NCBI GenBank assembly: GCA_019894975.1
Contig: JAGXNO010000029.1
Coordinates: 1-46,931, forward strand
Origin: Promethearchaeota archaeon
Lineage (GTDB): Archaea > Asgardarchaeota > Lokiarchaeia > Sigyniarchaeales > SOKP01
Direction: 5' to 3'
DNA length: 46,931 bases
The translations under genes were made by a program, and so were the position numbers. The notes under the pieces are model-generated. The model was given only the letters and a program-made list of their open reading frames with translations. It was not told the origin of the DNA and ran no database searches. Shown in pieces: positions 12,800 to 22,121 of the stretch (its first letter is position 1; every line of letters starts with the position of its first letter).

Positions 12800-13246
12800 T
12801 TGAAAGAACTATACGAAATAGGCTTTGTGTTTAGGGGATTTGTAATGGTTAATCATATTTTTAAAGATATGCCCCAACAAAAAGACCATGGAGTAACTAA
12901 AGACCTTAGAGGAGCATTTATATCAGCTATTAACACTTTTTCTGAAACGGCGTTCCAGAATAGTTCGTTAGAGTATTTAGAGTCTGGAAATATTTTGTTT
13001 ATTTTTAAATTAGCAGACATTCAATCCGGGGATAATAATGTAAAAGAACCAGTAATTTTATATGGATTAGTAGATAAGTCAAAAAAGAAATCGGATAAAC
13101 TTGTCAACAAATTTTTCGATAGAGTGAATCCAGTTTTACAATTATTTGTTCAAAAATTCAATGGGGCTAACTTTTCAGAATTAAACCAATTTGAAGATTT
13201 TGAAGAAAAGGTAGTAGAGTTCCTAACGAAAAAAACCCAAGAATGA
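12800..13246 (+). CDS. Longin-like (profilin-fold) small protein
   Basis: Pattern of two N-terminal strands, helix GAFISAINTFSETAF, strands LEYLESGNILFIFK and VILYGLVD, and C-terminal helices ending F.....F.....E, as in longin/AP-sigma-type domains. Confidence 0.6.
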   Translation: MKELYEIGFVFRGFVMVNHIFKDMPQQKDHGVTKDLRGAFISAINTFSETAFQNSSLEYLESGNILFIFKLADIQSGDNNVKEPVILYGLVDKSKKKSDKLVNKFFDRVNPVLQLFVQKFNGANFSELNQFEDFEEKVVEFLTKKTQE

Positions 13247-14896
13247 TTAATCCGCAAGGCTCCAACCTTTAGGTTTTGCTCGAGAATATTTTATCCTTCC
13301 TTGTTCCTTTAATATATTAATTTCTTTTTCTATTTGATCAATGGAGAAACCTTTTTCCTTTAATGGATTCACGAATTCTGCCTTTGTGGGGATTAAATGC
13401 TTATTCTTAAGATGTTCAAGTAGAATATCCTCCAACGTGCCTTCAGTTTTTATTTTTTCTACGGGAGCCTTTTCTTTTGGGACGCTAGATAGAATCGCAC
13501 TTAATTTTTCTTTATCTGTTTTAATAGGTTCTTCTATAACCATATGTTTTACACTGCTCTTTTGTTCCTCAACCACGGTTTCAGCTTCAATTTTTTCCTC
13601 TTTTTCTTCTTCAGGCAAACTCCATACAGGATACACTACTTTTTCATAAATAACTGATTTTTGGGTATTTAATACGGATAATTCTTCTAAGATTTCATCC
13701 TCAGTATAATTTAAATCTTTCAATTCCGCAGTTAGATCTTTTAAATATCCTTTATTTAGTAAAATCTCGAATAGATGCTCTCTAATATTAGTTGGGACTT
13801 TTTGAGCCTTTGCAATCTCATTAATCACAGTCTCTTTTTCAGTAGACTCTAATATCTGCAATTTATCTTGTTGAGGAATATCAAGAGAAGGTTTATCGCC
13901 CCACTCAAAATCGGTGAGAATTCTGATTGCACGATCATATCCTCCAAAAATAATATTTTTCTTTTCTTGATCTACTCTATAACATATATCCTTAATTGAA
14001 CTAGATACTTTTGTCTTCCATTTTAATTCAAAATCTGTTGATCCAATAGATGGATTATGAAATACTTTCAAAGATCCATCTGCGCATCCAGCAACGATCT
14101 CATTGGCGTTATCACCGTCAATATCTTCAATAAGTAGCGATAATGGACGACCCTCATCAATTTGAATATCTTTAATGGGTTCTCCATTGCAATCAAGTAT
14201 TTTTATAACAGAACTATCAGTACTTATTAAAATTTCATTGAAACCATCATTTGTAACATCACCTACTTTAATATCATTAATTTGCGAGCTAAAATCTTTC
14301 TGCCAAGTAATGTCAGGAAGTCCATCTTTAAACCTAATTAATTGAACAATTCCACTTTTAGTTCCAACTATTAATCCATAAATTGGAACCTTATCATCAG
14401 GTAATTTTAACACGCCTAATGTGCAAGCGGTTACCCAAGAGTCGTAATAAAAAATGAATTTTGGTTCCTCAGAGTTAATACCATCAAAAATTTTGATAGT
14501 CTTATCTTCACTACCAAATATTAATTCTATATTCCCATTTCGAGTAATATCTCCAGCGATGCAACAGATTACACGCTTAGGAGATCTATAGCGCATTATT
14601 CCAACTAATTTTTTCTTTTCTAAACTCAATTTTAAAACCATGAAGCTTCCGTCTCCCGCACCCACTAAAACTTCATCACACCCGTCCCCATCTAGATCAA
14701 TGGGATAACTACATCGACACCATCCATCAAAAACTCTATCATCAATTATATTCATACTTTCATCCATTAAATAGAGTGTTTTATCGTGTCCACCAAAAAT
14801 TAAGAAGCTTTTATCGTGGCATCTTAAAATTGAGCACGTTAAAACTGCATCCGGACATTCAAACATATGAATAAGTTGAAAACGCTTTCGAATCAT
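13247..14896 (-). CDS. FG-GAP/BBS2-like 7-bladed beta-propeller with two C-terminal winged-helix-like repeats
   Basis: Repeats DLDGDGCDEVLVG, GDITRNGNIELIFGSEDKTIKIF, GDVTNDGFNEIL, DIDGDNANEIVAG; two C-terminal repeats ending VIY...WSL and RIKY...WSL; no signal peptide. Confidence 0.75.
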   Translation of the reverse strand: MIRKRFQLIHMFECPDAVLTCSILRCHDKSFLIFGGHDKTLYLMDESMNIIDDRVFDGWCRCSYPIDLDGDGCDEVLVGAGDGSFMVLKLSLEKKKLVGIMRYRSPKRVICCIAGDITRNGNIELIFGSEDKTIKIFDGINSEEPKFIFYYDSWVTACTLGVLKLPDDKVPIYGLIVGTKSGIVQLIRFKDGLPDITWQKDFSSQINDIKVGDVTNDGFNEILISTDSSVIKILDCNGEPIKDIQIDEGRPLSLLIEDIDGDNANEIVAGCADGSLKVFHNPSIGSTDFELKWKTKVSSSIKDICYRVDQEKKNIIFGGYDRAIRILTDFEWGDKPSLDIPQQDKLQILESTEKETVINEIAKAQKVPTNIREHLFEILLNKGYLKDLTAELKDLNYTEDEILEELSVLNTQKSVIYEKVVYPVWSLPEEEKEEKIEAETVVEEQKSSVKHMVIEEPIKTDKEKLSAILSSVPKEKAPVEKIKTEGTLEDILLEHLKNKHLIPTKAEFVNPLKEKGFSIDQIEKEINILKEQGRIKYSRAKPKGWSLAD

Positions 14897-15044
14897 GATC
14901 TTACAAGAATCCTTTCGATTATAGAAATTTTGATAATATCTAAAATAAATTTTTCTGTTTATTCATTTAATAATTATCTCAAGAATTATAAAACAATTAG
15001 TTAAAAATAGATAAAGGAAAAAAATAAAAAAGAAAATTTATGAT

Positions 15045-17189
15045 TTATAATGCTAATTGTGCATCCGATGGGCTATATTCGCCAGTGCCTGTTATCTCAT
15101 AGGAGATTTCTAATTTATCACCGATTTCTAACTCATCAATTGCCCACTTTAGCGTATCTTGACCTACCTCATCTGTTATTTTAGGTGTCATTGAATAGGT
15201 ACCATATTCAAATGAATCTGGAACTTTATCAAGAAGTACAAGATTATATAATTTTGATTCACCAATATTTTCAAGAGTTAAGATAATTCTGTAATTACCA
15301 AGATCTCCAATTGGAACAACTTCTTTACTTGTACGGAATTTCCTTCTGATGTGAAGAGCTTCTATGGTTGGTACTTCAGGTTTAAACTCTAATTCTTGAC
15401 TTACTGGGTATGTATTTGCATGATAAATGATTTTTGATTCAAATGTTGAATCTCGAACAGGATTCATACAATGAATAGGATACTGGAATTCTAAGGATGA
15501 ATCAGGTTTAAACATCCCTGTACTAGTATCTTTAAGGGCTCTCAATGTAATTGTAAAAACGTCCATTTCAAAGCTGACGGCACCAGAAGAAAGTTCTACT
15601 TCATCTCCATCCCAAATTAGTTTAATTTCATCTGCTTTAGGTGGTTGGTATTCATCTGTGAACGATTGATGAATGACAATAATTTCATTCAGTGGAGCTG
15701 AACCGTTATTTGCCATTTTAAGAGTGGCAACAACGTCCTGAGATTTGTAAGTTGGGGTTTCAACTTTATCATAAGCCATATCTCCTGTTATGCTAGCTAT
15801 TTCTAATATAACATCTGAGATAGAAACTGCGACTGTAACTTGATATTGGTAATCAGGAACAACTCTAAATTCAAGTTTCTTCCTAAATGTTGGATAATCT
15901 TCACTTTCATATTGCCATTTAACTGAGTGCCATTGGGCGCCTGAAGGCAACATAGGAACATCATTAGGATCTATATCAATGAATTTCACGCTCTCATCAT
16001 CCGGACTGTACACGTCCGCATTGAATAGCTGAATAATAAATTCAGATGAATTATCAAATATTAATTTATTATCCCAAATATTAGGCTCCTCATCTCTTTC
16101 AAGAGTATCAATGAAAAACTTGTTTCGCGTGTAAGCGTCAAATTTATCTATAGCTAATCCTTCAGCAAATGAAGATGCTGCTTTATAAGTAACATCAATA
16201 CTTCCGGTTCTTCTCCTAGCGATATCATTTACGGTAATATTACAGGTTAGTTTAAGTACAACTGTATAATCTGGTCTTAATTTATCGATCTTCCAAATAA
16301 CCTTATCTCCCTTAATTTCAGCTCTTCCTTCAGTTGTATCTCGCACTACAGGATTAATAAAATCATCTGGAATAGTTTTAATTACTTCAATATCAGATAC
16401 TGGTTTGTTAAACATATTCCTTAACGCAATTGCAAAGGTTATTGTATTTTCTCTGTCAATTGAAATTCCAAATGTTTCTAAACTTGATACAACAGCAGTC
16501 CCGCCGTCTTCCCAGGTTTCTCCGTCCTCCTCTTTTTCTTCTTCCTCTTCCTCATCTTCTGCAGTTGGAGGTATTGTGGTGGCTACCTTTTTACTTGGTT
16601 TACTTGATTTATCTTTTAGTTTTAACAATTCTCTTTCAATATTATCTATATTTAGAACTTCATCAGCTTCGGGAAGAGTACTGATAAATTCTTTAACCAA
16701 GAATAGATTTTGTACATCTTTTTTTAATTCAAATTCTTGTGTATTAACGTTGTCTGGATACTCGGTGCCCAATTCTCTTATCGAAATATCTTTAGATTTC
16801 AAATTAGTACTACCTATATTTTCGAGGGAAACATCAATATCCCAAAGTCTATCTATCTTACTTGGGTTTTCGATACTAATTTTTCCTCCAAAGCTAAAGG
16901 ATCCAACGTTAGCATCATGATCTTGTGTTACTTCAACATCCTCAATTACTTTGACTAATGCCAACAAACCTTCTCGATTTCCACCTTTTAATAAAATACT
17001 GCCTTCAAGCTCTCCTGTGTCTTCATCGTATGTCTCAATAACCGGTGTTGCAGAATCTCGATCCACTAATTTTACTTTTCCATCATTCTTATCAGATCTT
17101 TTTAAGGCATCTGCTACTAATTCTTCTTTCGCTTCAGATTTATCAAATCCCATTCTCCGTTGTGGTTTTTTCTTATCTTTTTTTGCCAT
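15045..17189 (-). CDS. Cytoplasmic all-beta protein with a mu-homology-domain-like region and further Ig-like (DUF11-like) domains
   Basis: Segments VKVIEDVEVTQDHDANVGSFSFGGKISI, SDIEVIKTIPDDFINPVVRDTTEGRA..VIWKIDKL and SIDVTYKAASSFAEGLAI resemble MHD strands; acidic insertion; no signal peptide or TM. Confidence 0.6.
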   Translation of the reverse strand: MAKKDKKKPQRRMGFDKSEAKEELVADALKRSDKNDGKVKLVDRDSATPVIETYDEDTGELEGSILLKGGNREGLLALVKVIEDVEVTQDHDANVGSFSFGGKISIENPSKIDRLWDIDVSLENIGSTNLKSKDISIRELGTEYPDNVNTQEFELKKDVQNLFLVKEFISTLPEADEVLNIDNIERELLKLKDKSSKPSKKVATTIPPTAEDEEEEEEKEEDGETWEDGGTAVVSSLETFGISIDRENTITFAIALRNMFNKPVSDIEVIKTIPDDFINPVVRDTTEGRAEIKGDKVIWKIDKLRPDYTVVLKLTCNITVNDIARRRTGSIDVTYKAASSFAEGLAIDKFDAYTRNKFFIDTLERDEEPNIWDNKLIFDNSSEFIIQLFNADVYSPDDESVKFIDIDPNDVPMLPSGAQWHSVKWQYESEDYPTFRKKLEFRVVPDYQYQVTVAVSISDVILEIASITGDMAYDKVETPTYKSQDVVATLKMANNGSAPLNEIIVIHQSFTDEYQPPKADEIKLIWDGDEVELSSGAVSFEMDVFTITLRALKDTSTGMFKPDSSLEFQYPIHCMNPVRDSTFESKIIYHANTYPVSQELEFKPEVPTIEALHIRRKFRTSKEVVPIGDLGNYRIILTLENIGESKLYNLVLLDKVPDSFEYGTYSMTPKITDEVGQDTLKWAIDELEIGDKLEISYEITGTGEYSPSDAQLAL

Positions 17190-20765: not shown

Positions 20766-22121
20766 ATGCTTCGGCAAGTATATGTACTTAAAGGAAATGA
20801 AGTAATTTATAAAAGAACCTATGGGAATGCTCTAAGTAATTCCGAAGTTGAAGATCTAAGCTTTAGGATATTAAAAGAAGTATAAATTAGTCTTGGAGGG
20901 ACATCAGGACATTTCGATTTTATACAATATAGAATAGCATATAATGTTGAAATTGAAAAGAACTTAATCTTTCTTTTTGTAACCGGATTGATGGATGATT
21001 ACTATAGATTAATCAAGCCACAATTAACTAGCTTTGAAGAACAATTTTTCAATCGTGTAGGTGACGATTTAGAAAAAAAAGACTTGAGTAAGATTAATTA
21101 CACTGGAATTAATGTGATGCTTGATGAAATGCATAGAACTTTAAAACCAAAGATTGCAGTAGTAGGTTTTGCCGGTGTTGGTAAAACTACGATAAAAAAA
21201 TTAATAAAAATGGATGAAATTCCTCTTCAACACGTTCCGACGATTACAGGGGAAATAGCAACTATTAAAATTGGGAATCTTTTTTTTCGCTTATTTGATT
21301 TTGCTGGTCAGGAACAATTTAAATTTCTTTGGAAGGGATTTATTAAAGAAAGCGATGCAGTACTTGTAGTTACCGATTCTACTATGAGAAATGTTGAAAA
21401 GAGTAAATTTTTTATAACACTTATTAATGAAGAAGTCCCACACGCTCGAGCTGCCTTTATCGCTAACAAACAAGACTTGAAAGACACACTGAGTCCAGTA
21501 GAGATAGAAACTATTACAGAAGTAAAAACTTACTCTATGGTTGCTAACCATAAAGAAAATCGGAATAAAATGATTCGGATAATTGCAGATGTCTTAGATA
21601 TGAGCACAGATAATTCTCCATTACTTAAAGAATTATTTAATAGCACTGATTTATCACCAGAAACACTATTCATACCCGAGGAGTCTAGTGTTACTGAAGA
21701 AATTCTGGCACCGCAGGAAGATGAAGTACCCCAGGATCTTCATCCAAGTGGAGAAATTACAAAATATACAAATGCTCTTGATAAAATAGACCAAGTTATC
21801 TCAAGAAGTGTGGAAATAAAACCAATTATGTTTAAAAGTAACAAACCACAAGATGATGATATTAAATTTCCAATTGAAAATGCTCTAATCCCCGCTGATT
21901 TATTTGAAGAATTTATAAATGGGAACTCTTATACGTTAAATGATAAGTTAAGTGTTATATTTACTGTAATAAATTGTGCGTTTCTTACAAGAACCAATCC
22001 TGAAGATTATCCTAAATTCAGTAGTTTTTTAAGAAATTTTAAAATGGAAGTTTTTAATTCCAAGCAGATTAAAACCATTCGCAAGTACTACTCGAAAATC
22101 ATAAAACAAGCAAAATCCTGA
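20766..22121 (+). pseudogene. Longin-like domain + Arf-like small GTPase + C-terminal domain, interrupted by an in-frame TAA at 20883-20885
   Basis: G1 GFAGVGKTT, G2 PTI, G3 FDFAGQ, G4 NKQD. The frame extends 74 codons upstream of the track start (20988) to ATG 20766 (MLRQVYVLKGNEVIYKRTYG...) with a single stop. Confidence 0.7.

Follow-up and report, generated by a model that had tools for sequence, protein, structure and literature searches.

A mu-homology-like protein and a beta-propeller protein encoded side by side in a Lokiarchaeial genome: a putative two-protein scaffold

The open question of how eukaryotic adaptor and coat complexes arose is posed in concrete form by three adjacent genes of a Promethearchaeota archaeon (Asgardarchaeota; Lokiarchaeia; GenBank assembly GCA_019894975.1). 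The genes lie on contig JAGXNO010000029.1, of which positions 1 to 46,931 were analyzed (the window throughout), and encode a longin-like protein of 148 amino acids (aa), a beta-propeller protein of 549 aa and a protein of 714 aa with a predicted mu-homology domain (MHD)-like fold. Are these the three subunits of an AP/COPI/TSET- or BBSome-like proto-coat that sorts membrane cargo, as an earlier note made from the sequence had suggested, or do they belong together in some other way? We put at about even the chance that two of them, an MHD-fold protein and an ITFG2/BBS-type propeller, form a co-inherited module acting as a cytoplasmic recruiting scaffold, with the longin gene an old neighbor.

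Joint inheritance of two of the three genes

Gene neighborhoods were compared in 201 genomes spread over the phylum, to which the window's own genome was added (41 genomes in its family), and in 80 named species-representative loci around the 714-aa gene. Of the 32 genomes with a propeller orthologue, at least 27 carry the MHD-like gene on the same contig, immediately upstream of the propeller gene. In the other five, the propeller gene stood at a contig end (G104 and G135), was cut (G125), belonged to an assembly of 500 contigs (G153), or was kept beside what is left of the MHD-like gene, a C-terminal fragment with a TAG, in a genome in which the longin gene was tandem-duplicated (G138:C25:6131-9260). 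The propeller gene was found downstream of the MHD-like gene in 76 of the 80 species-level loci (median gap, 149 bp); three of the remaining four stop no more than 240 bp past the MHD-like gene, and in the fourth (L092), with ~1.3 kb downstream, the open reading frame (ORF) there was unmatched by the propeller profile. Nine genomes of the same family (89 to 100% complete; two whole genera and one genome of a third) had orthologues of neither gene and kept the longin gene. In three of them that were inspected, Metallophos, oxidoreductase, glycerate-kinase-like and longin genes stood in a row, with nothing between the last two. The MHD-like gene and the propeller gene were also neighbors in a sister family (G165) and in locus L101, where they converge, in another context and with no match to the longin profile. 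Because the two genes are adjacent, jointly absent and jointly kept after rearrangement, they behave as a unit. Two of the rearranged loci differ in their details: in isolate YT6_002 (L101:2047-10915), MHD-family genes for proteins of 1,033 and 701 aa stand in tandem, and the convergent propeller gene after them encodes 921 aa; in L011, from a sister-family genome, the propeller protein is 638 aa long and bears three C-terminal repeats, and a 98-aa ORF separates its gene from the convergent gene of a 738-aa MHD-family protein.

The convergent longin gene followed the pair in 72 of the 80 species-level loci (median of 1.5 bp between stop codons) and was present in 40 of 40 family genomes, including the nine without the pair; it was missing beside the pair in one species (L078) and in L011 and L101. 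Since it is kept without the pair and missing beside the rearranged pair, much like the constant glycerate-kinase-like gene, it is best regarded as a long-standing neighbor, conserved and convergent, which the module probably does not require. The expectation that the neighborhood would be conserved across relatives therefore held for the order of the trio and failed for its inheritance as a unit, and the earlier caveat that the convergent longin gene may be unrelated is favored.

The conserved core of the 714-aa family (positions 240 to 719 in a profile search; 464 clusters at the 50% identity level) was detected in 90 of the 201 genomes, which represent most Asgard families; its usual carrier is a protein of ~600 aa whose gene does not adjoin a propeller gene. 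A diverse alignment of 79 sequences was drawn from the exhaustive profile search. The full-length propeller orthologue was confined to a single family, where six of the eight genera have it, and is single copy in the window's genome. In four Lokiarchaeial genomes of the same family, a third paralogue of the MHD-like protein (668 to 1,007 aa; L102:6001-8175, L105:6418-8424, L106:6758-8785, L107:4183-7206) is encoded between cheA and a cheW-cheC/cheX fusion gene in complete chemotaxis operons (order: cheW, cheY, cheA, paralogue, unknown, cheW-cheC/X, unknown, cheR, cheB); this paralogue was absent from the window's own genome. Its position within chemotaxis operons indicates that these archaea use the MHD-like fold family in several cytoplasmic settings, signaling among them, and not specifically for trafficking. 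Among other relatives, a 703-aa paralogue in the window's own genome (G000:C101:28828-30630; L008:7850-9961), which recurs across the family, has unrelated neighbors (a UvrD helicase and a PEMT-like methyltransferase). A family member of ~590 aa is directly preceded by a co-oriented gene of metallo-beta-lactamase fold (Lactamase_B_3) in three genomes of two other Asgard families (L015:8968-9678, L016:5968-6675, L018:8379-9068), the sole recurring neighbor in other Asgard families.

Predicted folds of the paired proteins

The AlphaFold2 model of the 714-aa protein was all-beta and confident (predicted local distance difference test [pLDDT] of 88; predicted template modeling score of 0.75), with disorder in residues 1 to 45 and in an acidic insert at residues 193 to 240. 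The modeled fold is elongated and all-beta, and consists of a pair of beta-sandwich subdomains, one of them set into the other. Over 210 to 230 residues, covering both subdomains, the model matched eight MHD structures as a rigid body, and these outranked all other folds there (AP2 mu2, 16.1 and 15.9, the second entry with a root-mean-square deviation [rmsd] of 3.6 Å and 228/252 residues; AP4 mu4, 15.1; AP3 mu3A, 14.9; AP1 mu1, 13.9; delta-COP, 13.9 and 12.6; SGIP1, 13.0; Syp1, 11.7). This match was resolved by a domain-level VIA search, beyond a Foldseek search with the full-length model, which returned mostly generic multi-Ig chains at huge rmsd and in which AP2 mu2 (3ml6) alone stood out (TM 0.48 by target). 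PF00928 (Adap_comp_sub; gathering score, 31.6 bits) was matched by 10 of 31 orthologues scanned (E values of 1e-5 to 1.8e-8), two of which reached 34.5 bits; the best match (E = 1.8e-8) spans profile positions 123 to 240, overlapping a DUF11 match, and a distant relative aligned to positions 18 to 233 of 259 with 30.6 bits. The confident model thus shows the MHD fold in the Asgard Adap_comp_sub-like family, as far as a prediction can, and the earlier proposal of an all-beta protein with a mu-homology-like fold was borne out by it.

Known MHDs are those of the AP-1 to AP-4 mu subunits, delta-COP and the muniscins SGIP1, FCHo and Syp1 (PF00928), and the 714-aa protein shares their fold. It differs from the mu subunits and delta-COP, and from the medium subunits of AP, COPI and TSET complexes in general, in that no longin precedes the MHD (residues 1 to 45 are charged and disordered, with one short helix), from the muniscins in having no F-BAR domain, and from AP mu subunits in having no adaptin partners nearby. 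Relative to known MHDs it has ~110 extra ordered residues, a 48-residue acidic insert and then pilin-like and DUF11 domains. DUF11 was the only Pfam match in the window's protein; TIGR01451 matched residues 623 to 668 below its cut-off (E = 6.7e-4), and PF01345 covers the equivalent C-terminal domain (~635 to 710) in orthologues such as P0209 and P0216. Orthologues were 64 to 95% identical. Near the N terminus, invariant columns run from E19 to D55, and residues 17 to 60 are a candidate partner-binding element.

The 549-aa protein passed the cut-offs of three Pfam models (Beta-prop_BBS7, 59.3 bits against 27; BBS2_Mid, 38.7 against 27; FG-GAP_3, 35.2 against 26.9), and scored 22.6 bits with Itfg2, below its cut-off of 27. 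Against PDB sequences its family profile retrieved ITFG2 as the closest relative (2.6e-10), followed by BBS7 (3e-4) and BBS2 (2.4e-3), so that its identification as an FG-GAP propeller was confirmed. It thereby belongs with ITFG2 of KICSTOR and BBS2/BBS7 of the BBSome to one family of FG-GAP-type seven-blade propellers; it is without the coiled-coil, GAE and platform domains of BBS2 and BBS7, and has two winged-helix-like repeats instead. The MHD-like partner has no counterpart in KICSTOR or the BBSome. Orthologues of the propeller protein were 45 to 95% identical, with D67, D69, G72, E75, D258, D262, E266, C14 and C62 invariant. Metal binding by this cytoplasmic propeller is hinted at by some ten conserved cysteines (motifs FECP...C...C and WCRC) together with three or four DxDxDG-type loops. 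The tail repeats, joined by an acidic linker and ending in ...YPVWSL and ...YSRAKPKGWSL, may be winged-helix-like, judging by sequence pattern; the sister-family homologue has three. The tail had no Pfam match and no usable ESM Atlas match, and none of the BBS C-terminal models matched it (residues 340 to 549).

Single parts of this system are already published. Eme et al. 2023 (PMC10307638) listed Asgard candidates for Adap_comp_sub (PF00928) and Clat_adaptor_s, and reported mu C-terminal and sigma-like domains in most Asgard groups, never in one protein. A Jordarchaeia sequence on their list carries TWECTIEFMNTSEF, matching the family consensus WxCxLxFxNxSEF, and from such shared diagnostic motifs their Adap_comp_sub candidates appear to be of the same protein family as the 714-aa protein. 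Their work used Pfam matches alone, with no fold test, propeller partner, co-loss pattern or che-operon paralogue. A 2026 preprint catalogued an Asgard-eukaryote structural cluster “BBS7/ITFG2”. A literature search found no paper on the MHD/propeller gene pair, its co-loss or the che-operon paralogue, and the gene linkage is without a precedent that we found.

The longin gene and the layout of the locus

The 148-aa protein has the beta-beta-alpha-beta-beta-beta-alpha-alpha topology of the longin fold in a weak model (pLDDT of 60), whose top Foldseek and VIA matches were all longin domains, which supports the earlier longin-like assignment at the level of a prediction. No Pfam or NCBIfam longin model matched it at E ≤ 1, and its family profile retrieved nothing relevant from PDB sequences. 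Its closest known relatives are longin domains (sedlin/TRAPPC2, Sec22b, VAMP7, the AP sigma and mu N termini, FNIP/NPRL2/SMCR8 and the Lokiarchaeal Roadblock-Longin 8yqg), from which it differs in matching no Pfam longin model, in a subfamily that is not assignable and in a separable link to the other two genes. Residues 2 to 14 are invariant among orthologues, supporting the TTG start. Two longin-like paralogues in the same genome (G000:C91:7484-7888 and G000:C131:18192-18587) adjoin deoxyhypusine synthase/peptidase M29 genes and lie near CdhC genes, and the first is conserved across the family.

The three ORFs were found exactly where the earlier note had placed them, in position, strand and length (Table 1), and are real genes, given that each protein is 63 to 95% identical over hundreds of metagenomic relatives (Promethearchaeota/Lokiarchaeia). 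The longin and propeller genes converge with no gap, their stop codons abutting (TGA at 13244 to 13246 and TTA, the reverse complement of TAA, at 13247 to 13249). An A/T-rich, TATA-like stretch precedes the propeller ATG. All three proteins are acidic and, as the note had it, soluble: no signal peptide or transmembrane segment was predicted in the 148-, 549- or 714-aa protein (maximum 19-residue hydropathy of 0.96, 1.16 and 1.63). Metabolic genes surround the trio, again as described, with an Fe-ADH and an aldehyde:ferredoxin oxidoreductase gene on one flank and glycerate-kinase-like (DUF4147/MOFRL) and pyridine-nucleotide disulfide oxidoreductase genes on the other. A 377-aa small GTPase gene of the Arf/Roc family (20988 to 22121), between the oxidoreductase and Metallophos genes of a block that is otherwise conserved, occurs only in some related loci.

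Table 1. Genes, domains and spacer of the locus, in window coordinates
Feature	Residues	Position	Strand	Remarks
Longin-like gene P0001	148 aa	12800..13246	+	ORF; TTG start
Propeller gene P0002	549 aa	13247..14896	-	ORF
C-terminal tail of 549-aa protein		13250..13804	-	Two ~60-aa repeats, ~365-427 and 486-549 (alignment)
FG-GAP-type beta-propeller	1-335	13892..14896	-	Conserved DxDxDG-type loops
Spacer between 714-aa and 549-aa genes		14897..15044	-	148 bp; co-oriented genes; sequence reading
Mu-homology-like gene P0003	714 aa	15045..17189	-	ORF; member of Asgard “Adap_comp_sub-like”/DUF11 family
C-terminal DUF11-type Ig-like domain	618-705	15075..15338	-	Beta strands 618-701 in model
Pilin/cohesin-like beta-sandwich domain	466-612	15354..15794	-	
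Mu-homology-domain-like module	~50-460	15810..17042	-	Split by disordered acidic insert
Acidic poly-Glu insert within MHD-like module	193-240	16470..16613	-	pLDDT <50 at 202-232
N-terminal segment of 714-aa protein	17-60	17010..17141	-	Near-invariant among orthologues; low-confidence model (pLDDT 41-65)

Recruiting scaffold, coat or chance neighbors

The analysis shows the folds, their conservation and the joint occurrence and loss of the two genes; that the paired proteins bind each other and recognize motifs, and the cellular process that they would serve, we infer. Going by every MHD characterized so far, the ligands of the MHD-like module would be short peptide motifs or partner proteins, and a second platform for interactions would come from the propeller through its Ca-type loops and C-terminal repeats. 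A complex prediction with the full-length propeller and residues 10 to 460 only of the MHD-like protein scored 0.00, which weighs neither for nor against binding. A regulatory or signaling scaffold is moderately favored over a vesicle coat, because the nearest solved relative of the propeller is ITFG2 of KICSTOR and because an MHD paralogue sits in chemotaxis operons. Several observations weigh against the two-protein scaffold. PF00928 had no match at E ≤ 1 in the window's 714-aa protein and none in a six-frame search of the genome, and the family profile found no MHD among PDB sequences; with these searches below threshold, homology to eukaryotic MHDs rests on the fold and a marginal sequence signal. 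In other Asgard classes members of the 714-aa family are not adjacent to a propeller, and close relatives of the MHD-like protein stand alone (the own-genome paralogue and P0363). A long oligo-T tract (14990 to 15044) lies immediately 3′ of the stop codon of the 714-aa gene, so the two genes may be separate transcripts. Membrane binding is not suggested, because apart from a poly-Lys N terminus both proteins are strongly acidic (net charge of −54 for the 714-aa protein, with no hint of a basic lipid-binding patch, and −23). The oligo-T tract and the stand-alone relatives would equally suit proteins that act separately as mere neighbors, the MHD-like shape being a convergent arrangement of Ig-like/DUF11 sandwiches with no ancestry or mechanism in common with eukaryotic MHDs. 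Such convergence could also account for the overlap of DUF11 and PF00928 matches on one sandwich (residues ~246 to 357), for the generic multi-Ig chains that dominate the full-length Foldseek list, and for the structurally similar DUF11 families in Thermoplasmatota, where predicted-structure clusters share the overall shape, and in bacteria. We nevertheless think it rather unlikely, as a rigid-body match of 210 to 230 residues to eight MHD structures outranks all other folds, and joint absence from nine genomes together with joint retention after the sister-family rearrangement is hard to explain between proteins that act apart.

The proto-coat of three subunits draws on the fact that all three folds are those of eukaryotic adaptor/coat complexes, on the faithful order of the trio with its nearly touching stop codons, on Arf-like and Rag/roadblock-type GTPase genes in the same window, and on the report that homologues of every AP domain are scattered across Asgard archaea (Eme et al. 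2023). The longin gene, however, remains in place in every family genome that lacks the other two and is missing beside the pair in three loci, and a metabolic gene, the glycerate-kinase-like one, is an equally faithful neighbor, such that synteny at this depth is by itself no sign of function. The core of AP, COPI and TSET complexes comprises two alpha-solenoid (adaptin) subunits and a sigma/zeta longin. As the earlier note had acknowledged, no alpha-solenoid is encoded here, none appearing in a Pfam search of the neighbors between 4518 and 24253; elsewhere in the genome Adaptin_N was marginal (39.6 bits against a cut-off of 37), with a model that also matches Bacillus subtilis and two methanogens. 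Clat_adaptor_s, the sigma-type longin, was below its cut-off in the genome, and the MHD protein has no fused longin of its own. With the acidity of both proteins and the chemotaxis-operon paralogue weakening it further, a three-subunit complex is unsupported, only the MHD-like and propeller genes behaving as a unit, and we regard it as quite improbable. We see a similarly small chance that the pair is a membrane-associated cargo adaptor, a minimal, solenoid-free forerunner of eukaryotic mu-type subunits and of the propeller coats of TSET and the BBSome, with the longin loosely associated as its third subunit. Least probable is an integrin-like surface module of FG-GAP propeller and Ig-like “legs”, exported by non-classical secretion: such components as FG-GAP propellers with DxDxDG loops, DUF11 domains and pilin-like sandwiches are usual in extracellular proteins, integrin alpha chains were among the Foldseek matches and the propeller is rich in conserved cysteines, yet no aligned orthologue has a signal peptide or membrane anchor, the N termini are highly charged, the propeller bears repeats with what looks like a winged-helix pattern, and a paralogue of the MHD family lies within a cytoplasmic Che operon.

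To our knowledge, all that has been reported of Asgard “AP-like” domains is a scatter of marginal Pfam matches. For the MHD-fold family described here, the genetic partner is fixed and belongs to a class of proteins that eukaryotes employ in the BBSome and KICSTOR; the result is a concrete system of two proteins, in a lineage that has cultured relatives. The che-operon paralogue suggests instead that archaea may first have used the MHD fold as a general cytoplasmic scaffold, its recruitment to vesicle traffic coming only later. Whether the pair proves to be a coat or a scaffold, the answer would bear on models of how the endomembrane machinery came together.

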